From a virus (lineage: Duplodnaviria > Caudoviricetes): a DNA stretch of 64,000 nucleotides. Where the stretch lies: the IMG/VR virus record IMGVR_UViG_3300032116_022045. One strand, given 5' to 3'. Below, piece after piece: positions 20,801 through 58,352 of this stretch. The notes beneath the pieces were generated by a model. That model made no database searches, was not told where the DNA came from, and worked only from the letters and a program-made list of their open reading frames with translations. Every line of letters starts with the position of its first letter. The first letter of the stretch is position 1. Made by a program: the position numbers and the translations under genes.

Positions 20801-21153
20801 TTTCCTTTATCATTAACTGTTGTTGCTTCTTCCATAATAATATCAAGAGCAGCAGCAATGATTGGATAAAATTCCATAGCTTCAAAATCAGCATAAGAAC
20901 CTATACGAGTTGTTTCATAATTAATTGATTGTTGATAAAGTCCGTTTTCGACTTTTTTCCACATTTGAGACAAATATTTATTTTGTTGTGCTTGTAATTT
21001 CGCCAACTCATATTCTCTCTTATCTGTGGTTTTTAATAATTCTTTACCTATATTAAATCTTTGTGGTTGATTATATACATTCTTTAATTTAGCAGAATCT
21101 GGGCCAATTACTTGACCTAATCTTTGAAATATTGTTAATTTTTTATCAGACAT
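17848..21153 (-). CDS. gp20: portal protein (T4 gp20-like) with an HNH-containing intein
   Basis: Exteins WTRNT|CKYGDNF; LILAEDSMLVYRVTRAPERRVYKIYVGN; DTLPGASNLDQIADIEYL; ALRIPKPFL. Confidence 0.93.
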   Translation of the reverse strand: MSDKKLTIFQRLGQVIGPDSAKLKNVYNQPQRFNIGKELLKTTDKREYELAKLQAQQNKYLSQMWKKVENGLYQQSINYETTRIGSYADFEAMEFYPIIAAALDIIMEEATTVNDKGKVLNVYSESNRVKTILQDLFFNRLDIHTSLPMWTRNTPIRENSIIPLLDGTEITIKELSNRVKNGEEVWSYAIQDVTKAIVPSKIVWCDLTRRNSELYRVTLDDGTYIDTTPDHEYMLRDGSFKRADELTEGQSLMPFYTKTSVENYGKLNGYEKIYNPSSDKYEYTHRIIAKNCLIDSEKEKISGEKWLTHHINFKKRDNNPNNLKRMSFNEHSNLHEKLSKNLNEYRKKPEVIKKRLEGIDKYLRSDKRKKRLSEEMSGVYPKFFELYNNSDLHTEHNEIRSNKMLVNWSNKDFIKKTKKGMTIEISHACLNYISNIIINNQNYIGINKLAKLLKTDQEFINLLKETYTLRKDITKSINTTTLNKLIFRKTNKNYFEFVFSIKPEIILDKEYLKCKAIFEGKTKTKVINHKVISVIKLNETADVYCLEAVGPNGEHDRHNFPVCGFDSNSSYSRTSGVFLSNCKYGDNFVFLNVNDKHGIIGAKQMPNYEMERRESGLFDMISGSHSVNNNVPNSDKVKFYWRGRDVEFNSWQMAHFRLLGDDRRLPYGTSILEKARRIWKQLILAEDSMLVYRVTRAPERRVYKIYVGNIDDADVPAYVNEIADRFKRTPIIDSQTGQMDLRFNQLSNDQDFFIPVRSEDAPNPIDTLPGASNLDQIADIEYLRNNLFTALRIPKPFLGFDETSGEGKNLALQDIRFSRTVNRVQQSMLQELNKIAIIHLYLLGFEDDLDNFSLTLNNPSTQAEMLKIEHLQQKITLLKDAVSDIGNGFGTMSWTRAHREILGWSNDEIKKDLLEQRMEKAASGEIANTANVIKHTGMFDDVDKIYGDYEAALKGGGEAAASTETATPSFGGGGGGGLGGGLGGTTPETPEGGETPELGGETGGETPEGGEAAAPEAPAGGEASETLTEGLKLITEEKKLLTNKLVNRTNKYKNRFVDLIESVDGLDVNKKMDNIKIIDKNVKINNDINQIINEIDKMLDE
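19411..20691 (-). mobile_element. 427-aa intein with HNH endonuclease; atypical (Pro1, block-F Cys, Ser-Asn end)
   Basis: PIRENSIIPLLDG (block A), TTPDHEY (block B), HHINFKKRDNNPNNL (HNH), VYCLEAV (block F), GVFLSN/C (block G). Confidence 0.88.
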
Positions 21154-33148: not shown

Positions 33149-33796
33149 TTACAAATTAAATGCTTTGATTGTTAATTCAAAAGGTTTATTTTCTATGTTT
33201 TTAACTAAATCTAACATTTTTTGTGCTAATTCTCTAACTTCAAGTTGAGCATGTTCACTATTCCTTAATTTTTGGAAATGATAAAACGACCTCCAATTAA
33301 ACATAACATCCATTGTTATTTGAGAATTCATTGTTTTAAAAAATCTTGCACTTTCTTTAGCTCTTTTTCTCCCTAAAATTGGTGTCAATTCTTCTAAACA
33401 TTTGTGATATAACTCATTACTTTCTTGAGTAAATTCTTCAAGTCTTTTTAACCAAGTATATGATGTTGTATTCATTTCAGTTTTCCAACCATCATCTTTT
33501 GGTAAATATAGGTTATCTTCTTTTAATTCTTTATATCTGGCTGATTCACCATTAATACTAACACCAATTCTATGTTTTAATAGATGGATATGTGTTGCTT
33601 GGTCAACCGTAACCAAAAAATGTAATGATGATTTTTCAAATGGTGTGTGATGACCTTCATTAGCCAACATACTTAATAATTTACCAACTCTATTTAACTT
33701 TTCTTCAGTTAAATCTCTTGATGTTGATGTCCATGCTGATTGGGCGTGAATAACATCAGACCCATAATAACCTAATAATTCTACTTTATTCTCCAT
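33149..33796 (-). CDS. thyX: FAD-dependent thymidylate synthase
   Basis: GHHTPFE; KHRIGVSINGESARY (RHRx7SxR variant); NWRSFYHFQKLR...AQLEVR. Confidence 0.92.
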   Translation of the reverse strand: MENKVELLGYYGSDVIHAQSAWTSTSRDLTEEKLNRVGKLLSMLANEGHHTPFEKSSLHFLVTVDQATHIHLLKHRIGVSINGESARYKELKEDNLYLPKDDGWKTEMNTTSYTWLKRLEEFTQESNELYHKCLEELTPILGRKRAKESARFFKTMNSQITMDVMFNWRSFYHFQKLRNSEHAQLEVRELAQKMLDLVKNIENKPFELTIKAFNL

Positions 33797-34197: not shown

Positions 34198-34353
34198 TCA
34201 TTGCATTTTCTTAAGTTCTTCTTTAATTCTTCGAATTTCGGTAATTACATCATCACCAAGTTCAATTTTAGACATCAGAATTAAGTCCATAATTTGTGAT
34301 TCGTAAAGTGCAATTAGCTCTTGTTGTGATTGTATTACTTTTTCGTTATTCAT
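34198..34353 (-). CDS. small hypothetical protein (51 aa)
   Basis: MNNEKVIQSQQELIALYESQIMDL...KKMQ; directly follows the promoter at 34387-34418. Confidence 0.55.
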   Translation of the reverse strand: MNNEKVIQSQQELIALYESQIMDLILMSKIELGDDVITEIRRIKEELKKMQ

Positions 34354-34386
34354 GATTTTTTATTTTTTTATATTTAAGAATATTAA

Positions 34387-34418
34387 CAAATATACTATTA
34401 ATAATCGAATTAAACAAA
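34387..34418 (-). promoter_or_regulatory. Bacteroidota-type sigma70 promoter
   Basis: TTTG-N20-TATATTTG. Confidence 0.75.
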
Positions 34419-34429
34419 AAAATGTTTTA

Positions 34430-34525
34430 GTTGCGTGATATTTTTATCCTAAAATATTGTGGTAATTAAATATACATCAATTAGTTATAAAGATGTATTG
34501 CGTATATTCTGTTGTTATAGGTAAT
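34430..34525 (+). repeat. conserved non-palindromic leader site L1 (attI-like)
   Basis: TTAGTTATAAAGATGTATTGCGTATAttCTGTT-GTTATAGGTAAT; near-identical copies at 39907 and 41023. Confidence 0.65.
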
Positions 34526-34535
34526 AAAACAAAAA

Positions 34536-34766
34536 TTACGAGTTTTTTATTTCTTCAAACCCATAGTAATGTAAGAACATCAGTGTATGTTCGTCATCAT
34601 CTAGCATCCTTTCTGTTATTGTTATTATTTTACCGTTATGTTCGTTTTTCAAATTACCAATAAACTTCTGCCCTACTTGTAAATAATTAGGTGTAATTTT
34701 TGTTTTACTACCTATAACAAATAATTGGCGTAATGCCTTTAGTTTTTCAATCAAATATTTTCTCAT
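34536..34766 (-). CDS. cassette A ORF (hypothetical); starts inside the palindrome loop
   Basis: Reads through the core as VIGS (GTT ATA GGT AGT). Confidence 0.6.
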   Translation of the reverse strand: MRKYLIEKLKALRQLFVIGSKTKITPNYLQVGQKFIGNLKNEHNGKIITITERMLDDDEHTLMFLHYYGFEEIKNS

Positions 34767-34837
34767 AATATCAACTTTTGTTTTTCAAATTAACTTTTCG
34801 TTTGGCACTACGCCAATTATCAACCGTTATACACAAT
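34707..34837 (+). repeat. attC-like palindrome C1
   Basis: ACCTATAAC-AA-ATAATTGGCGTAATGCC ... GGCACTACGCCAATTAT-CAACC-GTTATACACAAT. Confidence 0.8.
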
Positions 34838-34881
34838 ACTACATTAGTGTTTAAATTATAGTTCCGTGTAAAACTTTAAAA

Positions 34882-35223
34882 TTAATTTTGTGAAATAAAA
34901 TCTTGACACAATAGATAATCTTGGTTATACTCAGATAAGTTATATTTAATATTAATATTATTTTCACAAAATCTTATAAAATTATGAATTATAGGTGTTC
35001 CTAATAACTGATTATGTTTTTTTGTGTAAAAAACAATTATAGGATATAAAACACCCTCAACATCATCGTAAAATTTTTGATTATATTTATTTAACACCAA
35101 AAAACAATTTAATAAATTTTTCCCTAACACAAGATTATTAGTCAGTTCCAGTTGTTTTTCTGGGGTTAAATTGTCATTAATGAAACCTCTAGTTTTCCAC
35201 AATTCAATATGTGTGTAATTCAT
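34882..35223 (-). CDS. cassette B ORF (hypothetical)
   Basis: 113 aa between GTTATACACA and TGTGTATAAC. Confidence 0.65.
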   Translation of the reverse strand: MNYTHIELWKTRGFINDNLTPEKQLELTNNLVLGKNLLNCFLVLNKYNQKFYDDVEGVLYPIIVFYTKKHNQLLGTPIIHNFIRFCENNINIKYNLSEYNQDYLLCQDFISQN

Positions 35224-35283
35224 AATTTTATATTTTAAAGTTAATATTTGTTTTTCAATTAAAGTTTCTACTTAATAAACCGT

Positions 35284-35388
35284 ACTGTGTATAACAAGGT
35301 GTATATGTAATTCTTTTTACAAAGATACGAATAAATTTTCAGATTTCCAAATAAAAAACTACATATACACCCAACCGTTAGCGGCAAT
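35284..35388 (+). repeat. attC-like palindrome C2, with a promoter in its loop
   Basis: TGTGTATAAC-AA-GGTGTATATGT ... ACATATACACC-CAACC-GTTAGCGGCAAT. Confidence 0.8.
35320..35351 (-). promoter_or_regulatory. Bacteroidota-type sigma70 promoter within the C2 loop
   Basis: TTTG-N20-TATCTTTG pointing at the cassette B ORF. Confidence 0.7.
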
Positions 35389-35589
35389 TTAATACCGTAT
35401 TTTATCATTAACTATACTAACAATCCAAAAGAACCCAACCAAGCTGAAAGCTGTAAACAGGTAACACATAAACATATTCATTTCGCTTTCAAACATTAAA
35501 ACAAATCCAACTAATTGAAGGATAAAAACTGCCGCTAACATCGCATATACGGCAATAGCGGCTACTGTGCTAATTTTAAACTTTTTCAT
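35389..35589 (-). CDS. cassette C ORF, small two-TM membrane protein; starts in the palindrome loop
   Basis: Two hydrophobic stretches in 66 aa. Confidence 0.6.
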   Translation of the reverse strand: MKKFKISTVAAIAVYAMLAAVFILQLVGFVLMFESEMNMFMCYLFTAFSLVGFFWIVSIVNDKIRY

Positions 35590-35669
35590 TATATTTTAGT
35601 TTTTGTTGTTAATTAAACTTCTGTGTTTCAAATCCGCTACTGCGTATATGCCCAACCGTTATGAATAAT
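35528..35669 (+). repeat. attC-like palindrome C3
   Basis: TGCCGCTAAC-ATC-GCATATACGGCAATAGCGG ... CCGCTACTGCGTATATGC-CCAACC-GTTATGAATAAT. Confidence 0.8.
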
Positions 35670-35674
35670 AAATT

Positions 35675-35887
35675 TTAAACCCATTCAATCGGTATCAACT
35701 TATCACATTTACTATCTTTCACTTCTTTACAATCATTGTAGTATTCTACGGTAGGAACTACTTTAACAGAACCATCTTCAAATGTGATAATCACTGCTTT
35801 GTCCCAATTAGGATGTTTTTCTTTTTTTAAGATTTTCATATATTTATGTTTAAAATTTACATACTTATAACAAATGATAAACAACAT
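35675..35887 (-). CDS. cassette D ORF (hypothetical; start 35887 or 35839)
   Basis: ORF between palindromes C3 and C4. Confidence 0.55.
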   Translation of the reverse strand: MLFIICYKYVNFKHKYMKILKKEKHPNWDKAVIITFEDGSVKVVPTVEYYNDCKEVKDSKCDKLIPIEWV

Positions 35888-35923
35888 TAAAACGATTGTT
35901 TATCATCGGACGTTATATGAAAT
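35863..35923 (+). repeat. attC-like palindrome C4
   Basis: ACTTATAAC-AA-ATGATAAACAA-loop-TTGTTTATCAT-CGGAC-GTTATATGAAAT. Confidence 0.8.
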
Positions 35924-35924
35924 G

Positions 35925-36320
35925 TTATTTTTGTTCTGAGTTAATTAAAATTAAATACCCAATAAAATAACCCATTTTATCAGAAGATATGACATCATCA
36001 ATTTTATTTTCCAATTCATTATCTTTCATGTAAAATGTTTCAGTGTCCTTGAAATAAAATACAGATAATGATACATTACCATTCATATCCAATAAACATA
36101 TTTCAAATATTTTACATGAAAGATTTTCACCCACTTCTTCATTCCCAATTCGTCCATATTTTATTTCATAATCATAGATAATCTTACCTTCTGATATTCT
36201 ATTATTAATCACACCAGATAAAACACCATTAGTATCTTCTGATAATGATTTTGAGTAATTAGTTAATAATTTACCAATATCAAATTTGGTATCCAAGTTT
36301 TTAATTTTAAATTTATTCAT
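35925..36320 (-). CDS. cassette E ORF (hypothetical)
   Basis: 131 aa between GTTATATGAA and TTCATATAAC. Confidence 0.65.
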   Translation of the reverse strand: MNKFKIKNLDTKFDIGKLLTNYSKSLSEDTNGVLSGVINNRISEGKIIYDYEIKYGRIGNEEVGENLSCKIFEICLLDMNGNVSLSVFYFKDTETFYMKDNELENKIDDVISSDKMGYFIGYLILINSEQK

Positions 36321-36356
36321 AATTTATATTTTTAATAGGTAAAACAAAAATAACAC

Positions 36357-36419
36357 ATTCATATAACAGATGATAAACAACATTAAAACGATTGTTTATC
36401 ATCGGACGTTATTCATAAC
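36357..36419 (+). repeat. attC-like palindrome C5 (near-identical to C4)
   Basis: TTCATATAAC-AG-ATGATAAACAACATTAAAACGATTGTTTATCAT-CGGAC-GTTAT. Confidence 0.8.
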
Positions 36420-36435
36420 TTTCTATTTTTTATAT

Positions 36436-36867
36436 TTAAGAATATAATAATACACAATATGTTACGTTTAAGTATAATTTAATAATAAGTGGTTCTGTAG
36501 TCCCCCAATCCAAAACACCAAAATCAACTTTATTGATTGTACCTTTAATTAACCATTCTTCAACTTTATCACCGATAGGAGATAATATAGAAAGATTAAC
36601 TTCTATTGTTTGGTCATCTAATTTTCTTAATTCTCTTAGTCCCGTCATCAATGATTGACTCGTTGATGGTACAATTGGGTCGTACATTGAGAAAACCATT
36701 TCATCCCATTTATGTCCGCCATTTGTTATAATAAAGGTTGGTCTAGTTGTACTTTTTACAACAAATTTTGGAATATTAAATGGTGGTTTAAATTCAACCA
36801 TAAATCTACTTACAGATTTAGGTTCAAATGGCACAAATACTTCTTGATTGGTCTCGTCTTTACTCAT
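36436..36867 (-). CDS. diverged tail-tube-like protein (gp19-like)
   Basis: FEPKSVSRF...WDEMVFSMYDPIVPS...LSPIGDKVEEWLIKG...FGVLDW...YCVL matches the tail tube pattern. Confidence 0.6.
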   Translation of the reverse strand: MSKDETNQEVFVPFEPKSVSRFMVEFKPPFNIPKFVVKSTTRPTFIITNGGHKWDEMVFSMYDPIVPSTSQSLMTGLRELRKLDDQTIEVNLSILSPIGDKVEEWLIKGTINKVDFGVLDWGTTEPLIIKLYLNVTYCVLLYS

Positions 36868-37138
36868 AACTTTCTATTGTTTTGTAACTATCAAAACATA
36901 AATGTACTGTATCTTCATTTATACTTAATATCGGGTAACAATGATGTAAAATACCTGATTCACATATTGTTTTGTATTCAATATTTTCTATGTAACTTTC
37001 CTTTGATACACCAGACTTACTACGTTTTTGCCATTTATAAAAGAAGATTACATCTTGTTCTTCGAATAGTCGTATAATAAATTTCATTTCATCATTATAT
37101 CTTCCTTCAAACCATTTTTCATTAATTTTAACTTTCAT
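36860..37138 (-). CDS. hypothetical protein ending IESYE
   Basis: 8-nt overlap coupling with its neighbour. Confidence 0.65.
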   Translation of the reverse strand: MKVKINEKWFEGRYNDEMKFIIRLFEEQDVIFFYKWQKRSKSGVSKESYIENIEYKTICESGILHHCYPILSINEDTVHLCFDSYKTIESYE

Positions 37139-37709
37139 AAACTTCTATTTTTTCGTTGTTGTATGTTATTGTAATTAGTCGGGTTGGCACATTCCATTCA
37201 TTATTCATTCGGTATTCAATATCCGATGGTAATAAGATTTCACTATCATCAGTATCATTTAATTTTTCTCTACATAAATTCATTCTTTCCTTCAAACTCA
37301 ACTCTCTTTCCTCAATCTTTAATCCCCATTTTTTTGAGAACTCTGAATCGGTTTTGCATTTGTTGATGAACTCTTCTTGTGAATACGGTTTCCATCTACT
37401 TTCAATTTCAGGATTCTTCTTAATCCAATAATTATCTACTTCATCGTTATGTTTTAGATAGTTCTTATACGCTTCGTCAATAGTCATATCGGCTAACAAA
37501 GATTTTATTTTTCTAGCGCACTCAGTTACTCTACCATCTACATCAAGTACGGTTGAAGATTCTAACGACCAAAGAAAATCATGTACCGTGGCATATGTTA
37601 TCTCTCTTTTAATTTGTTTTAACCCATCATATAAATGCTCTGCTGGGTCGATATAACTAGATGTACCTAATATAGTAATTACTTCTTTAATTATTTCTTC
37701 TTTACTCAT
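37128..37709 (-). CDS. paralog family member 1 (WGLKIEERELS...ITITYNNEKIE)
   Basis: C-terminal domain shared with 37702-38100 and 38364-38735. Confidence 0.75.
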   Translation of the reverse strand: MSKEEIIKEVITILGTSSYIDPAEHLYDGLKQIKREITYATVHDFLWSLESSTVLDVDGRVTECARKIKSLLADMTIDEAYKNYLKHNDEVDNYWIKKNPEIESRWKPYSQEEFINKCKTDSEFSKKWGLKIEERELSLKERMNLCREKLNDTDDSEILLPSDIEYRMNNEWNVPTRLITITYNNEKIEVYES

Positions 37710-38100
37710 AAATTTCTATCGTTTCATTATTGTATGTTATTGTGATTAGTCGGGTAGGGGTCGGCTCGTAATAATCATTTTCAAAATCAGGAAGATTATT
37801 TTCATTGTATTCCATACCAGTTTCAAAATTATTCTTAAACCAAATCTTATATCTTTCTTCCGAACTCAACTCTCTTTCCTCAATCCGCAATCCCCATATT
37901 TGAGAGAACTCTGGGTCGGCTTTGCACTTTGATAAAAAACCATTTTTATTGTATTGTCTTGCACCTATAGACTTCTCACCAGTTTTCATGTCCATCACTG
38001 GAACAGGTTCGAGAAATTTAGGATTGCTATCAAACATGGTTTGTTGAAGATACTTACGCCAAGACTCATCAATCATCTGATTCATTTTTTCGTTACTCAT
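37702..38100 (-). CDS. paralog family member 2
   Basis: WGLRIEERELS...ITITYNNETIEIYE. Confidence 0.75.
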   Translation of the reverse strand: MSNEKMNQMIDESWRKYLQQTMFDSNPKFLEPVPVMDMKTGEKSIGARQYNKNGFLSKCKADPEFSQIWGLRIEERELSSEERYKIWFKNNFETGMEYNENNLPDFENDYYEPTPTRLITITYNNETIEIYE

Positions 38101-38371
38101 AACTTTCTATTTTTTGATTTTCCCATTCAGTACCACTATAACCGATTGTTTCCATTTTATCAGTATCTACAAAAACACCCCAACCCCATTCAGATTGATA
38201 AAAAACCTCATTATCTTTGAGTTTTTCGGTCATTAACCAATTTTCATCTAAATCTTCAATTAAACACGTACCATTTTTTGGTACATATTTTATTTCTCGT
38301 TTATTAGTTAAAATAAATTTAACTTCCTCCCCATAACCTTTTAACTTTATTGTATCTGGTAAGTTACTCAT
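38093..38371 (-). CDS. hypothetical protein ending KIESYE
   Basis: Overlap-coupled ORF. Confidence 0.65.
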   Translation of the reverse strand: MSNLPDTIKLKGYGEEVKFILTNKREIKYVPKNGTCLIEDLDENWLMTEKLKDNEVFYQSEWGWGVFVDTDKMETIGYSGTEWENQKIESYE

Positions 38372-38735
38372 AACTTTCTATTTTTTCGTTGTTGTACGTT
38401 ATTGTGATTAGTTTTGCTGGGATGTTAGATGCATCGAGAACTGATTTTTCTTCTATAATTAACTTATGGTTTCTATCATAAAAATCTCTCTTATTATCAC
38501 TTTGACTAACCAGAATTTTTGTTCTTTCTTCTAAACTCAACTCTCGTTCCTCAATCTTTAATCCCCACTTTTCAGAGAACTCAGGGTCTGTTTTAGACCT
38601 ATAAATGAATGTTCCTTTAGTTTCTTTTGCCATCCATAAAAGACCTGTACCTTCTAAATGTTTACCCATTTCATATGATTTTTCATAATTCTCATACGCC
38701 TCATCAATAATCTGATTCATTTTTTTGTTATTCAT
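38364..38735 (-). CDS. paralog family member 3
   Basis: WGLKIEERELS...ITITYNNEKIESYE. Confidence 0.75.
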   Translation of the reverse strand: MNNKKMNQIIDEAYENYEKSYEMGKHLEGTGLLWMAKETKGTFIYRSKTDPEFSEKWGLKIEERELSLEERTKILVSQSDNKRDFYDRNHKLIIEEKSVLDASNIPAKLITITYNNEKIESYE

Positions 38736-39027
38736 ATGTAATTTTAGTTACTTGAAATACTTGTTCTAAACCATCGTCTTCACATATATATCCGTTGTAC
38801 TCGCCTGCATCCCAAACGTTAAATTTAAAATATAACCCATCTGATTTTCTTTGTACAATGTAATCCCATGAAGGGCCATCTGAATATTCTGAAGTGTTTA
38901 TCTTGGTTATGTGAGTGTAAGTGTCTCCATCAATCTCATAACTACTGCCTTGAAAGTAAATACCATCCCACAACTCTAGTTGTTGCTCGGAGTTCATTTC
39001 AATTAAAATTCTATCTTTTTTATTCAT
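38728..39027 (-). CDS. hypothetical protein
   Basis: Overlap-coupled ORF. Confidence 0.65.
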   Translation of the reverse strand: MNKKDRILIEMNSEQQLELWDGIYFQGSSYEIDGDTYTHITKINTSEYSDGPSWDYIVQRKSDGLYFKFNVWDAGEYNGYICEDDGLEQVFQVTKITYE

Positions 39028-39349
39028 CTTTTTTATTAAATAATTCTTTAAAATTAACTGTTTCTTCTAAAATAATAATATCAATATTCATTTCTTCTTT
39101 AGCTTTTTCAATCATGTTGTTTAATATTCCTCTAGTCCAAAGGCTACACCCATAACTGTTCTTATGGCATTTATAAACAGAATTAGAATACCCTTTAAAA
39201 TAATAGAAATCTTCATCGTCTTCAACAGATACGATTCCACTATTCATTCTCCATACATCTGAAGAAATGTAACCACCATACCAAGTGGCAAAAACTTTAT
39301 ATAAATCTTCGGATATTTTTAATACCACCCATTTATCAGGACTATGCAT
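39020..39349 (-). CDS. phage hypothetical protein
   Basis: PDKWVVLKI...YKVFATWYGGY...WRMNSGI pattern recalled from other myophage small proteins. Confidence 0.65.
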   Translation of the reverse strand: MHSPDKWVVLKISEDLYKVFATWYGGYISSDVWRMNSGIVSVEDDEDFYYFKGYSNSVYKCHKNSYGCSLWTRGILNNMIEKAKEEMNIDIIILEETVNFKELFNKKDE

Positions 39350-39352
39350 AAT

Positions 39353-39595
39353 TTATTTTTGTAAGGAAATTGAGACTTTGTACTTCAAACGAGAAGAGTT
39401 TATATCTGTTTCAATTAACCCAAACACGATACTTAAATCTTCTGGATTAATCATTGTTGGGGTAACCATAAATTCTTCTCCTATGTTATCAAGAGAATTT
39501 TTAATATTTTCCACTATTGATATTGGTATCAATGTTTCAATTTCCATTTCTTCAAAGGTTTCTGGGTTAATGTGTTTTGATTTGTAATTTTTCAT
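39353..39595 (-). CDS. hypothetical protein
   Basis: 80-aa ORF in operon. Confidence 0.6.
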   Translation of the reverse strand: MKNYKSKHINPETFEEMEIETLIPISIVENIKNSLDNIGEEFMVTPTMINPEDLSIVFGLIETDINSSRLKYKVSISLQK

Positions 39596-39607
39596 ATTTG
39601 TATAAAT

Positions 39608-39763
39608 TTATTTTTGTTTTGAATATATTTCATATGTTTTATTAACAGCATCTTGAACACTTTCCATCCAAGTTTTCAATATTGGCCTAAAATTGAAAAT
39701 GGACATTTCTGCGTCCCAAATAACTTTGGGGATTTCGATTTTAATAATTTTTCGGTTTTTCAT
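39608..39763 (-). CDS. small hypothetical protein (51 aa)
   Basis: MKNRKIIKIEIPKVIWDAEM...YSKQK; fills an operon gap. Confidence 0.5.
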   Translation of the reverse strand: MKNRKIIKIEIPKVIWDAEMSIFNFRPILKTWMESVQDAVNKTYEIYSKQK

Positions 39764-39820
39764 AATTATTTTATTAGTTTTTGCATAATTCAGTTATTTT
39801 ATTTTCATTTTCCATAGTAT

Positions 39821-39906
39821 TTAAGTTTTGTGTTTCAATTTAAAGTAAACGGAATAACCCATCTTTCACAATCTTGTGTCAATCTATTGATGTGTTTATA
39901 ATTATT
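39821..39906. repeat. 86-bp direct repeat of 40196-40281 (3' end of the receiver-like gene)
   Basis: Identical except one T/G mismatch. Confidence 0.9.
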
Positions 39907-39954
39907 CATTTAGTTATAAAGATGTATTGCGTATAGCCTGTTGTTATAAAACAT
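39907..39954 (+). repeat. leader site L2 (attI-like, truncated)
   Basis: 45 nt (39906-39950) identical to 41023-41067. Confidence 0.65.
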
Positions 39955-40138
39955 TTTTCGATACACCAAGTTCCTTTGATTTTACCAAAAATTCATTTTC
40001 ATCTTCCAAAGAAATAGTTGAAAATAAATGATGTTCCACCAAATATAATGGTGCGTTTGATGTAACTAAATCATTTAATTTAGCTTTATCCCAGAATTTT
40101 TCAACTCTTTCTTCTTGTGCTTTTGTTAATTTTTCCAT
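39944..40138 (-). CDS. cassette G ORF (hypothetical); stop codon inside the core
   Basis: Flanked by GTTATAAAAC and GTTTTATAAC. Confidence 0.6.
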   Translation of the reverse strand: MEKLTKAQEERVEKFWDKAKLNDLVTSNAPLYLVEHHLFSTISLEDENEFLVKSKELGVSKNVL

Positions 40139-40143
40139 ATAAA

Positions 40144-40195
40144 ACGTTTTATAACAAGGTATATGTGAAATACCTCATAAGGTTTCTACTAATTT
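40144..40195 (+). repeat. half attC-like site C6 (left arm identical to C8)
   Basis: TTTTATAACAAGGTATATGTGAAATACCTCATAAGGTTTCTACTAAT also occurs at 41588. Confidence 0.75.
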
Positions 40196-40209
40196 TTAAG
40201 TTTTGTGTT

Positions 40210-40617
40210 TCAATTTAAAGTAAACGGAATAACCCATCTTTCACAATCTTGTGGCAATCTATTGATGTGTTTATAATTATTAATATACCCCATCATATTA
40301 GCTGAACCAATAGCGTTGGCAGAATGAACCATAACCCTTGTTACTGGAGACCCATCCATCCATTTTTCAACTAACCATTTTGTGCAGTCCATACCAGTTT
40401 TTTCGGTTATGTTATTGTAATCAATGGTGTAGTTATTAACCACATTATTATGCCACTCAATCATAGCAGAATCACCTAAATCATGGTCCAAAGATATTAA
40501 TTCTATATTTTCAAGACCTATTTCAGTTATTTTTGAAACAAATTCATCGTAGTTTCTAACCACAATCCAATCAGAACCCAATGGAGTTCTAACATCATCT
40601 AAATATATTTTTGTCAT
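40210..40617 (-). CDS. cyclic-phosphate-processing receiver-like domain protein
   Basis: IYLDDVRTP; ISLDHDLG; TGMDCTKWL; VHSANAIG. Confidence 0.7.
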   Translation of the reverse strand: MTKIYLDDVRTPLGSDWIVVRNYDEFVSKITEIGLENIELISLDHDLGDSAMIEWHNNVVNNYTIDYNNITEKTGMDCTKWLVEKWMDGSPVTRVMVHSANAIGSANMMGYINNYKHINRLPQDCERWVIPFTLN

Positions 40618-40910
40618 TTTGTTTTTAATGTTTCAATTTCTACTAATAATTCTTTAACATCAAATTTATCCATTTTTTGAAAGTTTTTATATTTTGTTTT
40701 AATTGTTGAATTAAAAACAGAACCATTACTTTCAGCCAATTCAAAACTATTGTAATCAATAGAATCAACATTATGATATTTGTATTGACCACCATTTTTA
40801 AAAATTATTGTTAAATCAAAATTATTTCTGTCGTACACTGATGCACAAATGTTTGATGAATCATAAATAGCTTTTATAATTCCCTTTTGTTCTTCTTTTT
40901 TTAATACCAT
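40614..40910 (-). CDS. KTSC domain protein
   Basis: SSNICASVYD...LTIIFKNGGQYKYHNV...AESNGSVFN. Confidence 0.8.
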   Translation of the reverse strand: MVLKKEEQKGIIKAIYDSSNICASVYDRNNFDLTIIFKNGGQYKYHNVDSIDYNSFELAESNGSVFNSTIKTKYKNFQKMDKFDVKELLVEIETLKTK

Positions 40911-40926
40911 TTTTATTTATTTATTA

Positions 40927-40958
40927 CAAATATACTAATAATATTTTATTTACACAAA
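40927..40958 (-). promoter_or_regulatory. Bacteroidota-type sigma70 promoter
   Basis: TTTG-N20-TATATTTG. Confidence 0.75.
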
Positions 40959-40976
40959 AAAATATTTAAATAATAG

Positions 40977-41071
40977 TTGCGTAATATTTTTATCATAAAA
41001 CCGTGATATAATTACCTATATATCATTTAGTTATAAAGATGTATTGCGTATAGCCTGTTGTTATAAACAAT
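40977..41071 (+). repeat. leader site L3 (attI-like)
   Basis: GTTGCGTAATATTTTTATC...TTAGTTATAAAGATGTATTGCGTATAGCCTGTT-GTTATAAACAAT; parallels 34430-34525. Confidence 0.65.
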
Positions 41072-41079
41072 AAAAAACC

Positions 41080-41478
41080 TTAAAGTGGTGGTTCTAAATT
41101 ATCTTTTATCTTATCATAAGAATCTTTAATCGCATCTGAAAGTATTTGTTCAATAGGTTTTTTACTATTTATAACAACGGATATATGAAATAAAAAATTA
41201 ATAGATTCTACAAACTTTCTAATTTCTTCCTCCGATTTACATTCTCGTTGAACAACACAAAATTCACCTCTTACCACTTTACAAGTTTGGGTTTCTATGT
41301 TGTAATAAAGTATTGGTAATCTACAAGAGTTTCCACATATTTCAGTATCTTCTTCACCTAAAACCCAAACTTGTTTTCCAGAGAATACATCAACTATCTC
41401 TTTGAATCCTAAATCTGTTAAATTTTGTGTTGTTATCATCGTTCTAATTATTAATTTTTTACATTCATATATCCGCAA
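41080..41478 (-). CDS. cassette H ORF, mostly encoded in the loop of palindrome C7 (start 41478 or a downstream ATG)
   Basis: Reads through the arm and core as FHISVVINS. Confidence 0.6.
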   Translation of the reverse strand: MRIYECKKLIIRTMITTQNLTDLGFKEIVDVFSGKQVWVLGEEDTEICGNSCRLPILYYNIETQTCKVVRGEFCVVQRECKSEEEIRKFVESINFLFHISVVINSKKPIEQILSDAIKDSYDKIKDNLEPPL

Positions 41479-41492
41479 CCGTTATAAAACAT
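41164..41492 (+). repeat. attC-like palindrome C7 with an approx. 250-nt loop
   Basis: TTTATAAC-AAC-GGATATATGAAATAAAAAATTAAT ... ATTAATTTTTTACATTCATATATCC-GCAACC-GTTATAAAACAT. Confidence 0.75.
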
Positions 41493-41496
41493 AAAA

Positions 41497-41577
41497 TTAT
41501 AATAACATCAGTAAACAAATTAATGTACATACCGTTATTATCATAAGTGCGATTTTTTCAGTCTTATCTATTTTCAT
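41497..41577 (-). CDS. cassette I micro-ORF, 26-aa hydrophobic peptide
   Basis: MKIDKTEKIALMIITVCTLICLLMLL; fills the cassette body between C7 and C8. Confidence 0.35.
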   Translation of the reverse strand: MKIDKTEKIALMIITVCTLICLLMLL

Positions 41578-41583
41578 AATTTT

Positions 41584-41687
41584 ACGATTTTATAACAAGG
41601 TATATGTGAAATACCTCATAAGGTTTCTACTAATTATTTAAGTTTCGCGGTTAGGTACTTCACATATACCCAACCGTTAGTGGCAAT
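41584..41687 (+). repeat. attC-like palindrome C8
   Basis: TTTTATAAC-AA-GGTATATGTGAAATACC ... GGTACTTCACATATACC-CAACC-GTTAGTGGCAAT. Confidence 0.8.
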
Positions 41688-41886
41688 TTTGACGATGTAT
41701 CTCATCACCGATAGCTTGTAATCTTTTGACATCTTCTGCATCCCATAAGTAAATTCGGCAGTTAGTTTCTTTTCCATCTTTAATAATTGGTGCAAATCTA
41801 TCTTTACCCATATCACCGATAGAAAAACTGCCACTAACATCGGTTTTGCAAAAAAGCCGTTTTAGTGCTAATTTTAATCTTTTCAT
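41677..41886 (-). CDS. cassette J ORF; probable start in the C9 loop, stop in the core
   Basis: MKRLKLALKRLFCKTDVSGSF...RQNCH. The ORF-track start at 42021 lies in the neighbouring cassette. Confidence 0.55.
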   Translation of the reverse strand: MKRLKLALKRLFCKTDVSGSFSIGDMGKDRFAPIIKDGKETNCRIYLWDAEDVKRLQAIGDEIHRQNCH

Positions 41887-41967
41887 TTCTATTGAACTTT
41901 TGTTGTTAATTGAACATTTGTTTTTCAAAATCGGCTTCTTCGCAAAGCCGTAAACGTTAGTGGCAAT
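41827..41967 (+). repeat. attC-like palindrome C9
   Basis: TGCCACTAAC-ATC-GGTTTTGCAAAAAAGCCGTTTT ... AAAATCGGCTTCTTCGCAAAGCC-GTAAAC-GTTAGTGGCAAT. Confidence 0.8.
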
Positions 41968-42220
41968 TTTGCTCACCACGCTTATAAACCATCTCTTTGT
42001 TTTCGTCAAAATGTAAGTCATATTCTTTACAAAAAGACCTAACCATTTTTCTAAATTCGTGATATTCCCAAGTTGTTAAGTCGTGCTTATCAAACAACAA
42101 CCTCATTTTATACAATAATCCATTAGGTCTTCTTGTAAATTCATCTTGATAAAAACTGCCACTAACAGCACCTAAATCGCTATTGGCGGTTTCTTCTGTA
42201 TTCAAATTTTCGTGTTCCAT
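41957..42220 (-). CDS. cassette K ORF; probable start in the C10 loop, stop in the core
   Basis: MEHENLNTEETANSDLGAVSGSF...EQNCH. Confidence 0.6.
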   Translation of the reverse strand: MEHENLNTEETANSDLGAVSGSFYQDEFTRRPNGLLYKMRLLFDKHDLTTWEYHEFRKMVRSFCKEYDLHFDENKEMVYKRGEQNCH

Positions 42221-42296
42221 ATTATGTTTATTTAAAATTGATAATTTAGTGTTCCAAATCGCCAACAGCGTTTAGCTGCGGCACGTTATAAGTAAT
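42155..42296 (+). repeat. attC-like palindrome C10
   Basis: TGCCACTAAC-A-GCACCTAAATCGCTATTGGCGGTTT ... AAATCGCCAACAGCGTTTAGCTGC-GGCAC-GTTATAAGTAAT. Confidence 0.8.
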
Positions 42297-42298
42297 TT

Positions 42299-42550
42299 TT
42301 AGTTACTCCTTATCATATTATCTTCTTCAAGAAAAAACATTTCCAATGCCGTGTCATATCCTTTACCCTCTTCCACTATCATAATATACTTACCTTCGCC
42401 ATAAGCTACAGTAGCATTTTTATCAACAATGAATTTAATCTTCTTACCTTCATACTTATTATGATAATGTAAGAAAAAACTACTTATAACATCAGATATA
42501 CCCAATTCGGGGTTATGTGTTTCATTTGAGTTTTGTTCTTTATCAACCAT
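42299..42550 (-). CDS. cassette L ORF
   Basis: MVDKEQNSNETHNPELGISDVISS reads through the half site at 42479. Confidence 0.6.
   Translation of the reverse strand: MVDKEQNSNETHNPELGISDVISSFFLHYHNKYEGKKIKFIVDKNATVAYGEGKYIMIVEEGKGYDTALEMFFLEEDNMIRSN
42479..42510 (+). repeat. half attC-like site C11 (right arm not found)
   Basis: ACTACTTATAAC is complementary to GTTATAAGTA at 42285. Confidence 0.55.
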
Positions 42551-42835: not shown

Positions 42836-45328
42836 ATGAATAGAGAAGTTGAACCAAAAGTTAAAATAATTATCACAAATGCCAGTAAAGAGGCTCTTAA
42901 TCTTGATGATAATAAGTTAAGGCCAGAACATATATTGTTATCTATGTTAAACGATAATAATAATGGATGTACAACAATATTAAAAAAATTAAAAATAGAT
43001 GTTGATGAATTATATGATAGAATAATTGATTTTATCAAAAGAAATGATGTCTTACCTAAAATAAAAATTACTAGGCGTACACCACCATTTTCAGATGAAA
43101 CAAAAAAATTAATTGTTTTATTGGATAAAGAATGTGAAAAATTAAATGATAATATAATTGATACAACACATATAATGTTAGTATATTTGTCAATGAAATC
43201 ACCAATAAATGATTTATTAAATGTGCACTACTCGCTAGACTATAATAAATTTAAAAACGAAATTATGAGTAATATGAATAATGAAAAAAACAATGTATTT
43301 AGTGACGATAATGATAACGACATTGAATATCTTAAAAAGAGAAAAGTTGATGATAAATCTAAAACACCTGTTTTAGATAATTTCTGTAAAGATTTATCTA
43401 AATCAGCAGAAAAAAATGAACTTGACCCAGTTATTGGTAGAGAAAAAGAAATTAAAAGAATTTCTCAAGTTTTAAGTAGAAGAAAAAAAAATAACCCAAT
43501 TTTAATCGGTGAAGCTGGAACTGGTAAAACAGCAATAGTTGAAGGGTTAGCTCAATTAATAAAAAATAATAACGCACCAAGAACCCTACAAAATAAAAGA
43601 ATATATAGTTTGGATATGGGGTTGGTTGTGGCTGGTACTAAATACCGTGGACAATTTGAAGAAAGAATGAAAGCCATTCTTGAGGAATGTAAAGCAAATA
43701 AACATATTATATTGTTTATTGATGAATTACATACAATAGTTGGTGCTGGAAATACATCTGGGTCATTAGACGCTTCTAATATATTTAAACCAGCGTTAGC
43801 TAGAGGTGAAATACAAGTTATTGGGGCAACAACATTAGATGAATATCGTGAAAATATAGAAAAAGATAGTGCTTTAACAAGAAGATTTCAACAAATTATG
43901 GTTGAAGAACCTACTTTGGAAGAAACAAAAAATATTTTATTTAATATAAAAGAAAAATACGAAAAACATCACAAAGTAATTTATACTAATGAAGCTATTA
44001 ATGAATGTGTTAAATTAGCCGATAGATATATTACCGATAGAGCAATGCCAGATAAAGCTATTGATATCATGGATGAAGCTGGTGCCTCAACCAATATTAC
44101 CATAGAAAAACCAGAAAATATTAAACTATTAGAAAAAAGAAAACAAGAATTGATGGTGATTAAAAAAGAAGTAGTGTTAAAACAAAAGTATGAAGAAGCA
44201 GCTAAACTAAGAGATGAAGAAAAAAATATTATTGAAGAGTTAAATAAAGCTAACGCTATATGGAATGAAACATTAAGTAATGATGCAACTGAAATAACTG
44301 TAGATATAATCGCTGAAGTTGTTTCTAGTATGACTGGAATACCACTAACTAAAATATCAACAAAAGAAGCTGAAAAACTAATAAACTTAGATAAAGAATT
44401 ATCTAGTAAAGTTATTGGTCAAGATAGTGCTGTAACTAAAGTAGTTAAAGCAATAAAAAGAAGTCGTGTTGGTATTAAAAATAAAAATAAACCTGTCGCT
44501 AGTTTCATTTTTTTAGGAAATAGCGGAACGGGAAAAACTTTTTTAGCTAAATTATTGGCTGAAAAAGTTTATGGTGATGAAGATGCGTTGATAAGATTAG
44601 ATATGTCTGAATATATGGAAAAACATAATGTATCTAGACTTATTGGTTCACCTCCAGGATATGTTGGTCATGAACAAGGTGGTCAATTAACAGAAAAAGT
44701 TAGAAGAAAACCACATTGCGTTATTTTATTTGATGAAATAGAAAAAGCTCACGAAGATATTTTTAATTTACTCCTACAAGTATTAGATGAAGGACAGTTA
44801 ACTGATGGATTGGGTAGAAAAATTAATTTTAAAAACGCATTAATAATCCTAACTTCTAATATCGGTGTTAAAGAAGTAAACTCATTTGGTAAAACTATGG
44901 GGTTTGAAACATCTAAATCAATAATTAATGAAGAAAATAAAGTACGTTCAATTATTGATAAAGCATTAAAGAAAAAATTTAAACCAGAATTTTTGAATAG
45001 AATTGATGAAGCAATTACATTTAATAGATTAACAAAAGAAGATATTCAAAAAATAGTCTATTTAGAAATAAATAAACTTGAAGAAAGATTAAAAGAACTA
45101 AACTTTAAACTTGAAATAACAAAAGAAGCAGTAGAATTTTTGGGTGATGAAGGTTATGATGAAAACTATGGTGCCAGACCATTAAATAGAACAATACAAT
45201 ATCATATCGAAGACCAAATCTCAGATGAAATATTAAATGGTAATATTAAAGATGGTGACACAATACTAATATCTTTTAATAAACAAAAAAAATTAATACA
45301 AATAAAAAGTAAAAAAACAAAAAAATGA
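42836..45328 (+). CDS. clpC: ClpC/ClpB-family AAA+ chaperone
   Basis: Clp N-domain; GEAGTGKT; LFIDELH; UVR-like middle domain; GNSGTGKT; RLIGSPPGYVG; MGF loop; YGARPL. Confidence 0.9.
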   Translation: MNREVEPKVKIIITNASKEALNLDDNKLRPEHILLSMLNDNNNGCTTILKKLKIDVDELYDRIIDFIKRNDVLPKIKITRRTPPFSDETKKLIVLLDKECEKLNDNIIDTTHIMLVYLSMKSPINDLLNVHYSLDYNKFKNEIMSNMNNEKNNVFSDDNDNDIEYLKKRKVDDKSKTPVLDNFCKDLSKSAEKNELDPVIGREKEIKRISQVLSRRKKNNPILIGEAGTGKTAIVEGLAQLIKNNNAPRTLQNKRIYSLDMGLVVAGTKYRGQFEERMKAILEECKANKHIILFIDELHTIVGAGNTSGSLDASNIFKPALARGEIQVIGATTLDEYRENIEKDSALTRRFQQIMVEEPTLEETKNILFNIKEKYEKHHKVIYTNEAINECVKLADRYITDRAMPDKAIDIMDEAGASTNITIEKPENIKLLEKRKQELMVIKKEVVLKQKYEEAAKLRDEEKNIIEELNKANAIWNETLSNDATEITVDIIAEVVSSMTGIPLTKISTKEAEKLINLDKELSSKVIGQDSAVTKVVKAIKRSRVGIKNKNKPVASFIFLGNSGTGKTFLAKLLAEKVYGDEDALIRLDMSEYMEKHNVSRLIGSPPGYVGHEQGGQLTEKVRRKPHCVILFDEIEKAHEDIFNLLLQVLDEGQLTDGLGRKINFKNALIILTSNIGVKEVNSFGKTMGFETSKSIINEENKVRSIIDKALKKKFKPEFLNRIDEAITFNRLTKEDIQKIVYLEINKLEERLKELNFKLEITKEAVEFLGDEGYDENYGARPLNRTIQYHIEDQISDEILNGNIKDGDTILISFNKQKKLIQIKSKKTKK

Positions 45329-58349: not shown

Positions 58350-58352
58350 TTT

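Follow-up and report, generated by a model that had tools for sequence, protein, structure and literature searches.

What kind of genetic system keeps about eleven small genes between imperfect palindromes with fixed TAAC and GTTA ends in a large freshwater phage, and what moves these genes? We addressed this on a 64,000-nt stretch of IMG/VR virus record IMGVR_UViG_3300032116_022045 (hereafter the window), which carries the T4-type genes Gp23, gp20 and TerL. A sequence-only reading had proposed that the region from 34,430 to 42,510 holds integron-like cassette arrays, with nine complete palindromes and two half sites, one small ORF between neighbouring sites, a conserved structure rather than sequence, cores that match across the cassette but usually not across the hairpin, and a recombinase supplied by the host or a distant phage.

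We first verified the sites themselves. The observation was confirmed, all nine palindromes and the half sites lying where they had been placed, give or take a few bases, in two arrays (34.4-36.4 kb and 41.0-42.5 kb). The nine sites share one asymmetry: an ungapped scan gives a spacer of 2 nt on the left and 5 nt on the right (1/4 or 3/6 at two sites) for the seven sites that it can see, and finds no such hairpin elsewhere in the 64 kb apart from three AT-rich background hits. The scan returns 10 hits against a mean of 1.5 in shuffles, 7 of the 10 lying within 8 kb. The core rule, i.e. cores that match across the cassette and not across the hairpin, holds for 10 of 11 cassettes, with perfect inverted repeats of 8-10 nt including GTTA/TAAC that extend to 17-28 nt with mismatches. 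Three copies of a conserved half site that ends each array (34481-34518, 39910-39946 and 41027-41063) had not been singled out before; the 26-mer they share occurs 3 times in the window against 0 in shuffles. Two further points of the earlier description need correction: sites 35868 and 36364 are the same hairpin sequence, and several ORFs begin inside the hairpin loop rather than lying strictly between neighbouring sites. The features are as follows, site coordinates running from TAAC to GTTA, cores being given as the pair at the two cassette ends, and folding energies as minus against plus strand.

34381-34529, no strand assigned: conserved array-end block A, 80% identical to 40922-41075, with the attI-like half site (26-mer at 34481-34506) and the junction GTTAT at 34514-34518; on the gene-sense strand it reads TAAC-AACAG-AATATACGCAAT, the same TAAC-N5-(A)TATA form as the motif in front of the recombinase gene in relatives.
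34515-34826, minus: cassette 1, ORF 34536-34766 (76 aa, starting in the hairpin loop) and hairpin site 34715-34829 (arms 34721-34737 and 34804-34820; -19.8 against -14.0 kcal/mol); cores GTTATAGGTA / TACCTATAAC match over 10 nt, the inverted repeat extending to 28 nt.
34827-35377, minus: cassette 2, ORF 34882-35223 (113 aa) and hairpin site 35292-35380 (89-nt class; spacers 2 and 5 nt, 17 of 19 arm pairs); cores GTTATACACA / TGTGTATAAC.
35378-35658, minus: cassette 3, ORF 35389-35589 (66 aa, predicted membrane peptide, starting in the loop) and hairpin site 35536-35661 (126-nt class; arms with one bulge); cores GTTAGCGGCA / TGCCGCTAAC.
35659-35912, minus: cassette 4, ORF 35675-35839 (54 aa) and the 48-nt hairpin site 35868-35915; the only cassette whose two cores do not match (only 5 nt match); its hairpin is identical to site 36364 and to sites in many IMG/VR phages, its loop TCGTTTTAATG is identical to that of P12002L_attC1, and contig depth in this bin is 20-30 times the flanking depth.
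35913-36408, minus: cassette 5, the distal end of array 1, ORF 35925-36320 (131 aa) and the 48-nt hairpin site 36364-36411 (perfect 12-bp arms); cores GTTATATGAA / TTCATATAAC.
39907-40194, minus: inserted segment B, an attI-like copy (39910-39946), ORF 39944-40138 (64 aa) and a 3'-arm half site 40146-40175 identical to the left half of site 41593, flanked by an 87-nt direct duplication (39820-39906 and 40195-40281); cores GTTATAAAAC / GTTTTATAAC.
40922-41075, no strand assigned: conserved array-end block C, 80% identical to block A, with the attI-like half site 41027-41063 and GTTA at 41060.
41061-41481, minus: cassette 6, ORF 41080-41439 (119 aa; the gene is called in contig L161) with site 41172-41484, whose arms (41178-41189 and 41464-41475, 274 nt apart) enclose most of the ORF; cores GTTATAAA / TTTATAAC match over 8 nt, with a 24-nt inverted repeat.
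41482-41676, minus: cassette 7, 26-aa ORF 41497-41577 and hairpin site 41593-41679 (87-nt class; 18 of 20 arm pairs; included in the 42-site alignment below); cores match over 9 nt.
41677-41956, minus: cassette 8, ORF 41677-41886 (69 aa, starting in the loop, stop codon inside the TAAC box; the gene is called in L161) and hairpin site 41835-41959 (125-nt class; -25.0 against -21.3 kcal/mol); cores GTTAGTGGCA / TGCCACTAAC.
41957-42285, minus: cassette 9, ORF 41957-42220 (87 aa, starting in the loop, stop codon in the TAAC box) and hairpin site 42163-42288 (126-nt class; -20.2 against -14.9 kcal/mol); cores GTTAGTGGCA / TGCCACTAAC.
42286-42550, minus: terminal unit of array 2, ORF 42299-42550 (83 aa) with only the 3'-arm half site 42481-42504 (TACTTATAAC-AT-CAGATATACCCA) and no 5' arm; cores GTTATAAGTA / TACTTATAAC; the arm belongs to the CAGATATACCCA family seen complete in contigs L174, L179 and L197.

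We then asked whether the cassettes are discrete units. Contig L163, whose flanks are 97-99.8% identical to the window, has a 353-nt unit (68-aa ORF plus hairpin) inserted exactly at GTTAT 34514-34518, with no target duplication; it also diverges from the window right after GTTATAA at 41060-41066 and then carries a different 3.5-kb array. The 353-nt unit recurs at 97% identity in two further contigs, L373 and L374, with different neighbours, so that the same cassette sits in three contexts with homology ending at the TAAC boxes; in L374, homology runs from TAAC to TAAC exactly. Metagenome contigs that share part of the array break off at 34514, 34714, 34829, 35868, 35916/7 and 36414. The cassettes thus behave as discrete mobile units cut inside GTTA/TAAC, although no circular cassette or empty-site junction was observed among the assembled contigs, to which the search was limited. 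Segment B is absent from L163, which has a single copy of the 87 nt; this segment is not a site-specific event and arose by another kind of recombination.

To determine whether this architecture extends to other phages, we searched IMG/VR and found 562 distinct sites. In the first 80 loci, the spacer matrix peaks at 2/5 and 5/2 (68 and 87 hits) and is close to zero elsewhere. The 6-nt cores match at 5 or more of 6 positions across 287 of 396 cassettes, compared to 28 of 559 within hairpins (5%) and 4.7% for random pairs. The hairpins fall into sequence families shared between phages and are not purely structural, contrary to the sequence-only reading. Their predicted fold is strand-specific: of the stem mismatches read on one strand, 593 are A.C or C.A, which become G.T wobbles on the other strand, and only 89 are the reverse, and the gene-sense strand is the more stable at all 7 window sites folded. 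RNAalifold on 42 distinct 88-nt sites gives 22 pairs, 15 of which show compensatory changes, with one G.T invariant in 42 of 42. The strand that folds is also the mRNA strand, and an invariant G.U is typical of RNA signals; part of the conservation could serve RNA.

Which enzyme could act on these sites? Within the window no tyrosine recombinase was found, as had been stated previously. By contrast, 4 of 5 array-bearing phage records have a single PF00589 gene (E 1e-35 to 1e-40) beside the array. The enzyme is a 268-aa Xer/IntI-like tyrosine recombinase, and its catalytic R, K, H-x-x-R, H and Y residues are invariant. In 64 of 80 loci around its homologues, sites lie upstream of the gene in one orientation; the other 16 are mostly contigs that start at the gene (eight of them) or homologues under 40% identity (six). 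The attI-like motif TAAC-N5-TATAT sits at a fixed 40-41 or 49-50 nt before the ATG in 41 of 60 loci, against a background of 0.02 per 200 nt, and its core is chained to the previous hairpin in 30 of 39. Note, however, that this recombinase is short and lacks the IntI-specific insertion that classical integron integrases use to read folded attC, and that the four nearest IMG/VR relatives of the phage have neither the recombinase nor arrays. Activity in this particular phage is therefore inferred, the array being probably serviced in trans. Among the papers searched, only fragments of such a system are published: one member of the family was flagged as an attC in Polaribacter phage P12002L (Qi et al, 2023; PMC9892861), and this P12002L_attC1 gave no recombinants with IntI1 in the assay of that study.

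Together, these data support the interpretation of the sequence-only reading, with amendments regarding the enzyme, the cassette orientation and the sequence families. We consider it likely, with good though not complete confidence, that the region holds two arrays of mobile gene cassettes belonging to an integron-like site-specific recombination system found in phages and bacteria of the Bacteroidota type, which looks like a largely undescribed, mirror-image relative of the bacterial integron. Written on the gene-sense (minus) strand, each cassette is in this view composed of C, a 5-nt spacer, 5' arm, loop, 3' arm, a 2-nt spacer, GTTA plus a 6-nt private core, the ORF, the complementary core, then TAA. 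When the unit is closed into a circle, its two ends would complete one long hairpin, with an R stem (private core plus TAACG/TGTTA), a 3-nt bulge, and an L stem of 11-20 bp with a fixed G.T wobble. The recombinase would exchange strands inside TAAC/GTTA, between a folded hairpin and either another hairpin or the attI-like half site (TAAC-N5-TATA) at the proximal end of the array, and new cassettes would therefore enter next to that half site. Site polarity and the positions of attI and of the recombinase gene all match classical integrons, but the cassette genes face the opposite way, towards attI, each hairpin travelling at the 5' end of its gene, probably with its own expression signals and often its start codon. 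The phage studied here, with arrays and attI-like ends but no recombinase in the 64 kb, most likely depends on an enzyme supplied by a co-infecting phage, by the host, or by a gene elsewhere in its own genome, which fits the earlier suggestion of a recombinase supplied from elsewhere. What the analysis demonstrates is the existence of discrete cassettes with precise ends, the core rule, the strand-specific covarying fold and the linkage of arrays to the recombinase gene; that this recombinase is the catalyst, that its substrate is folded single-stranded DNA, that circular intermediates exist and that the enzyme acts in trans are inferences.

Alternatively, the hairpins could primarily be RNA elements on the mRNA strand, such as leaders, processing sites or translational control, their association with variable genes being secondary and the recombinase in relatives serving another purpose, for example dimer resolution. 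Indeed, the folding strand is the gene-sense strand in 302 of 329 cassettes, G.U-compatible wobbles are conserved, one of them invariant in 42 of 42, and start codons and N-terminal codons lie in many loops. However, an RNA role accounts neither for cassette ends falling exactly at the base of the hairpin, nor for the same cassette in different contexts, nor for the core rule, nor for the attI-like half site, which has no hairpin yet is where cassettes are gained. Moreover, a dimer-resolution Xer would not be expected always to sit downstream of such arrays in one orientation. We regard this reading as unlikely.

Only marginally less probable is PeSL-type shuffling, in which the hairpins would be promoter/terminator regulatory cassettes and genes would be swapped by ordinary homologous recombination between these repeats, with no dedicated site-specific enzyme. 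The phage is T4-type, and PeSLs are described in T4-type hyperplastic regions (PMC2839356; PMC4122927). Hairpin sequence families are repeated within and between phages, e.g. the 48-nt hairpin at 35868 and 36364 with its depth spike, loops contain conserved motifs upstream of start codons, and homologous exchange clearly also happens here, as shown by the 87-nt duplication and the paralogue region at 36.8-38.7 kb. Nevertheless, homologous exchange explains neither the private 6-nt cores complementary across each cassette, nor homology of a moved cassette ending at a 4-nt box, nor the fixed 2/5 spacer asymmetry and strand-specific fold, nor the consistent linkage to a tyrosine recombinase with a fixed upstream motif. 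Furthermore, sigma-70 promoter-like sites are not enriched (60 against 57.8 in shuffles) and no terminator-like hit coincides with a complete hairpin site on the gene strand.

Lastly, movement by an HUH/IS200-IS605-like transposase, or by a transposase acting on the inverted-repeat ends, is very unlikely: although each cassette is flanked by inverted repeats of 10-28 nt and subterminal hairpins with a short fixed cleavage motif recall IS200/IS605 ends, a general Pfam scan of 20 large ORFs of the window and 100 cassette ORFs from other phages, not directed at HUH families, returned no HUH or transposase family, the inverted repeats differ from cassette to cassette, unlike the ends of a transposon family, there is one hairpin per unit and not one at each end, the insertion in L163 shows no target duplication, and the consistently linked gene is a tyrosine recombinase.

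The window derives from an uncultured T4-type phage with about 27% G+C, which encodes a Gp23 capsid protein, a gp20 portal protein with an intein (17848-21153, 1101 aa, with the intein splicing domain at residues 162-548), a T4-type large terminase and a cluster of four tRNA genes (Pro, Phe, Asp and Glu; 58015-58594). Major-capsid relatives in IMG/VR reach 84% identity and sit on contigs of up to 345 kb, the nearest isolates being Flavobacterium phages, at 38%. The stretch occurs in freshwater and lake metagenomes from 2017 to 2023, and a megablast search of the region against 50,697 phage records gave no match. The region of interest lies between thyX (33149-33796) and a ClpB-like gene (42836-45328), which encodes a full-length ClpB/Hsp104-type double AAA+ chaperone of 830 aa, conserved at 52-76% identity in 80 related IMG/VR contigs. 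All the small genes of the region are on the minus strand.

We first verified the presence of the integron-like gene-cassette arrays proposed by the sequence-only reading, both by reading the sequence and by scanning it for hairpins bounded by TAAC and GTTA. The observation held, with nine complete hairpin sites, two half sites and a conserved block at the low-coordinate end of each array:

34715-34829, complete hairpin site
35292-35380, complete hairpin site
35536-35661, complete hairpin site
35868-35915, complete hairpin site (48-nt hairpin)
36364-36411, complete hairpin site (48-nt hairpin)
41172-41484, complete hairpin site
41593-41679, complete hairpin site
41835-41959, complete hairpin site
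42163-42288, complete hairpin site
40146-40175, 3'-arm half site
42481-42504, 3'-arm half site
34381-34529, conserved block at the end of array 1, with an attI-like half site
40922-41075, conserved block at the end of array 2, 80% identical to the former, with an attI-like half site

The seven sites visible to an ungapped scan have a spacer of 2 nt after TAAC and 5 nt before GTTA (1/4 or 3/6 at two sites), and three AT-rich background hits elsewhere in the window agree with the 1.5 hits expected from shuffles. Ten of the eleven cassettes have perfect inverted cores of 8-10 nt including the boxes, extending to 17-28 nt with mismatches, the exception being cassette 35659-35912. The half site contained in the conserved end blocks occurs three times in the window, and its 26-mer had no exact match in IMG/VR or in JGI metagenome contigs. 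The loop sequence TCGTTTTAATG has a third match in the window, at 54839, which is not a site. Two cassette ORFs (69 and 87 aa) end with Cys-His-stop and use the TAA of the TAAC box as their stop codon (41677-41679 and 41957-41959), and several ORFs start inside hairpin loops, with the 3' arm encoding a recurring L-(N/G)-I-S-D-V motif in one hairpin family.

We then asked whether the cassettes are discrete, movable units. An exact-protein look-up for the 131-aa ORF returned near-identical contigs from other samples, among them L163, which is 97-99.8% identical to the window in the flanks. L163 carries 353 extra bases between window positions 34518 and 34514, a 5-nt overlap that spells GTTAT; it lacks 39907-40194; and it has a different 3.5-kb array that begins right after GTTATAA at 41060. 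The extra piece reads TTATGCGAA, then an antisense 68-aa ORF, then TTCGCATAAC-AT, arm, loop, arm, AAACAC-G, i.e. one cassette (cassette X) with its own complementary cores and one hairpin. The same 68-aa protein is encoded in two other contigs with different neighbours, L373 and L374, whose DNA is 97% identical to the L163 cassette. In L374, the identity runs from the TAAC before the hairpin to the TAAC after the ORF and stops there, and the hairpin therefore travels at the 5' end of its gene. The cassette abuts the attI-like half site in L163 and L373, and another hairpin in L374. In one of its contexts (L374, 760-999), the neighbour of cassette X is a 79-aa ORF with a weak precomputed hit to Acb2_Tad1_hairpin, a family of anti-defence sponge proteins. 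Contigs from four metagenomes that share parts of the array diverge at 34514, 34714, 34829, 35868, 35916/7 and 36414, and the bin holding the 48-nt hairpin has 20-30 times the flanking depth, indicating that this hairpin is shared by many genomes. Note that these are assembled contigs, which show alternative contexts and not excision; the many joints listed at 90% likeness with short sides probably come from other genomes sharing hairpins, and were not used as evidence of excision. Assembly chimeras were rejected as the source of the cassette contexts, because the sequence shared at the junctions is only the 4-10 nt box, far below assembler k-mers.

The same architecture is present in many phages. 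A 16-mer covering an arm end, the spacer and GTTA matched at least 118 IMG/VR contigs. In the first 80 of these loci (0.69 Mb), which together carry arrays of these sites, the spacer matrix has 68 hits at 2/5 and 87 at 5/2, with smaller peaks at 1/5 and 5/1 and almost nothing elsewhere, and arrays reach at least 21 sites in 8 kb. Over all the loci retrieved there are 562 distinct sites, which fall into three main length classes, at 48, about 88 and about 125 nt. The 6-nt core after GTTA is complementary, at 5 or more of 6 positions, to the core before the next TAAC in 287 of 396 cassettes, compared to 28 of 559 for the two cores of one hairpin and 4.7% for random pairs. In 302 of 329 cassettes (92%), the ORF lies on the strand that reads TAAC, 5 nt, hairpin, 2 nt, GTTA, i.e. 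towards the attI-like site and the recombinase gene. A first, crude hairpin scan of 160 loci around MCP and ClpB homologues found no arrays.

The sites have a strand-specific, covarying fold. With the short spacer on the left, stem mismatches are A.C or C.A 593 times and G.T or T.G 89 times; the other strand, which is the gene-sense strand, therefore pairs through G.T wobbles. All seven window sites that we folded are more stable on that strand, with an R stem (TAACG/TGTTA), a 3-nt bulge and an L stem. RNAalifold on 42 sites of the 88-nt class with different arms gives 22 pairs, of which 15 show compensatory changes; one G.T in the middle of the L stem is present in 42 of 42 sites and another, at the top of the R stem, in 41 of 42. 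Because the sites were selected for pairing, the number of pairs is partly by construction, as is the invariance of TAAC and GTTA in this alignment, since these boxes were part of the search pattern; the invariant wobble and the strand bias are not.

A tyrosine recombinase gene is linked to the arrays in other phages. Four of five array-bearing phage records contain one PF00589 gene (E 1e-35 to 1e-40), each beside an array; one complete array-bearing phage lacks the gene. All four proteins are 268 aa. An example of a 268-aa recombinase is encoded in IMG/VR record 3300042879_005260 (L288, 1159-1962). Their best family match is XerA_Arch, at 176-186 bits and below the cut-off of 220, and the integron-integrase model (TIGR02249) matches in two pieces, at 151-158 bits against a cut-off of 265. 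The nearest solved structure is Pyrococcus abyssi XerA (4a8e, E 1.4e-37). Against VchIntIA (2a3v), the protein aligns in two pieces, with only 29 residues opposite IntI residues 182-258, indicating that the IntI-specific insertion is missing. The catalytic residues R134, K159, H218, R221, H244 and Y253 are invariant in 12 sequences that are 44-78% identical to the first sequence. The family has 5129 clusters at E 1e-30 or better and is annotated as XerD.

In 64 of 80 IMG/VR loci around homologues of this protein, hairpin sites lie upstream of the gene, from 139 nt to 10 kb away and nearly all in one orientation. Of the 16 loci without sites, eight begin at or near the gene and six hold homologues under 40% identity. 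The motif TAAC-N5-TATAT lies at a fixed 40-41 or 49-50 nt before the start codon in 41 of 60 distinct loci, against a background of 0.02 per 200 nt, and the core before it is chained to the preceding hairpin in 30 of 39. The half site of the window, TAAC-AACAG-AATATACGCAAT on the gene-sense strand, has the same form; it ends each array and is the point of the cassette gain or loss, but no integrase follows it. Two genes with KTSC and cREC_REC domains (40210-40910) sit directly downstream, in the gene sense, of the attI-like end of array 2, in the position where relatives have the recombinase gene.

By our scan, the window has two clusters of sites with no recombinase within its 64 kb (no gene by tblastn; best E 0.43 in a profile search). 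We considered whether the 51-aa ORF after the array 1 end block (34198-34353) is a remnant of the recombinase N-terminus, but found no support from tblastn or from the profile search. The four nearest IMG/VR relatives searched (G006-G009) have neither arrays nor the gene; one of them has a decayed fragment at E 0.013 with six stops, which we do not count. Supply of the enzyme in trans to this phage is an inference.

Bacterial homologues of the recombinase at 45% identity or more are nearly all from Bacteroidota, including isolates of Flavobacterium, Mesonia and Sunxiuqinia, and most loci that include DNA upstream of the gene show sites there in the same orientation. Searches of the ten window cassette ORFs against Pfam and PHROGs found nothing. 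Among the 100 largest cassette ORFs from other arrays there are ten DNA methyltransferases, GNAT acetyltransferases, YopX proteins, an RNA ligase and ADP-ribosyltransferases, most of the rest having no match. From these family assignments alone, this mix suggests counter-defence and host-takeover functions.

We next compared these arrays to the closest known systems. As in classical integrons, including sedentary chromosomal integrons, single-gene cassettes are separated by imperfect palindromes ending in AAC...GTT, the core at the start of each cassette is complementary to the core before its own hairpin, which in integrons is the footprint of a circular intermediate, the inferred crossover lies inside GTT(A), and one strand folds specifically and carries unpaired bases. 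A simple half site at the proximal end is where new cassettes appear, and in relatives a tyrosine recombinase gene sits next to that site with the same polarity relative to the sites. Laid out on the strand antisense to the genes, the order is recombinase gene (antisense), attI-like G|TTA, cassette, TAAC-hairpin-G|TTA, which is the layout of a classical integron; only the cassette genes are reversed. The differences are the Xer-like recombinase of 268 aa without the IntI-specific insertion; spacers of 5 and 2 nt (a 3-nt bulge), where attC has a 5+5 unpaired spacer with separate extrahelical bases; conserved boxes TAACG/TGTTA with a 6-nt private core; ORFs facing attI, where integron cassettes are promoterless, point away from attI and are expressed from Pc, with the hairpin at their 5' end and often containing the start codon; and the carriers, which are phages and Bacteroidota.

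Part of this family is already published. Screening 10,705 phage genomes with integron tools, Qi et al, 2023 (PMC9892861) reported 17 CALINs (clusters of attC sites lacking an integrase) of at least two predicted attC sites. One of these sites, P12002L_attC1 of Polaribacter phage P12002L, called an attC by HattCI, lies at 30015-30047 of NC_028924 between two methyltransferase genes and belongs to the 48-nt hairpin family, with a loop identical to those of window sites 35868 and 36364. We found two further sites of this architecture in P12002L, around a methyltransferase gene and with chained cores; like the window, this phage has sites but no adjacent integrase. In the assay of Qi et al, attC1 was the one site that did not recombine with IntI1. 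Their study reports two predicted sites per phage, found with attC models, and treats them as bacterial integron parts carried by phages; we found in it no description of the architecture of the family, the reversed gene orientation, the dedicated Xer-like recombinase, the attI-like motif or the large arrays. Full-text literature searches, which did not cover subscription journals, found no description of the system beyond this study and the papers on PeSLs.

PeSLs (promoter-early stem-loops; Arbiol et al, 2010, PMC2839356; Comeau et al, 2014, PMC4122927) are likewise small stem-loop-containing repeats between small non-essential genes in plastic regions of T4-type genomes, are linked to gain, loss and replacement of ORFans, and have led to the proposal of mini-circles. 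However, they are conserved sequences (terminator plus sigma-70 promoter) that recombine by homology, with no TAAC/GTTA boxes, no cassette-specific complementary cores, no fixed bulge asymmetry and no associated tyrosine recombinase. The window does not fit this description: in a scan limited to sigma-70-type promoters, promoter-like sites number 60 against 57.8 in shuffles, no terminator-like hit coincides with a complete hairpin site on the gene strand, and cassette ends are defined by 4-nt boxes and private cores, not by shared sequence. Xer/dif-type module exchange (XerA/XerC/XerD; pdif modules of Acinetobacter plasmids) shares the kind of recombinase and the idea of gene modules flanked by short recombinase sites. 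The dif and pdif sites are double-stranded 28-bp sites with two 11-bp arms and a 6-bp centre; inspection of the attI-like block by eye revealed no convincing site of this kind, and the sites described here are 48-126 nt hairpins with strand-specific folding.

Overall, the interpretation of the sequence-only reading is supported, with amendments: the system works like an integron but lacks the IntI domain and carries its cassette genes in the opposite orientation. We consider that the discreteness of the cassettes, their complementary cores, the strand-specific fold and the linkage of the recombinase gene to arrays in relatives are shown by this analysis, whereas the reaction itself, the folded strand as its substrate and the source of the enzyme for this particular phage are inferred; the hairpins may in addition have an RNA role. 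On a reading that we consider slightly more likely than not, this would be a second, independent lineage of integron, in which a minimal Xer-type recombinase without the IntI domain would recombine folded single-stranded hairpins marked by a 3-nt bulge and an invariant G.T wobble, and cassettes would carry their own expression signals and face the recombinase. The system would form a shared exchange network for counter-defence and host-takeover genes (methyltransferases, RNA ligase, ADP-ribosyltransferases, many ORFans) among Bacteroidota phages and their hosts, and arrays without a recombinase, like the two in this window, would be serviced in trans during co-infection.

Integrons are the textbook device by which bacteria collect and shuffle accessory genes, and are thought to depend on a special domain of the IntI integrase that reads folded attC DNA. 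Here the same logic appears in lytic-type phages, but with a minimal Xer-type enzyme and with genes that are reversed and apparently self-expressing. If confirmed, this would give phages a dedicated, sequence-independent way to trade small genes, which would help explain the turnover of ORFans and counter-defence genes in large phage genomes. It also offers a natural experiment on what is really required to recombine folded single-stranded DNA, with bearing on the origin of integrons. The system is abundant, and the precise cassette gain or loss observed here at the population level makes the idea directly testable.

The region also varies in other ways. An 87-nt direct duplication (39820-39906 and 40195-40281), covering the 3' end of the cREC_REC-like gene, flanks a 288-nt segment made of an attI-like copy, one ORF and half a hairpin; L163 has one copy of the 87 nt and no insert, and this is not a TAAC/GTTA event. 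At 36860-38735, a run of overlapping minus-strand paralogous genes (92, 193, 132, 92 and 123 aa) is joined by a repeated junction of about 50 nt (near 37135, 37702 and 38364), without hairpin sites. Near-identical contigs differ here by whole genes (for example 150, 120 and 142 aa in L163), and metagenome contigs skip 36851 to 37694 and 37378 to 38685, which looks like homologous unequal exchange between paralogues. In the alternative array of L163 (reverse complement, 8586-9445), one unit (186-aa ORF) lies inverted between a left-arm half and a right-arm half of what looks like one hairpin; about 8% of cassettes in other arrays are also inverted.
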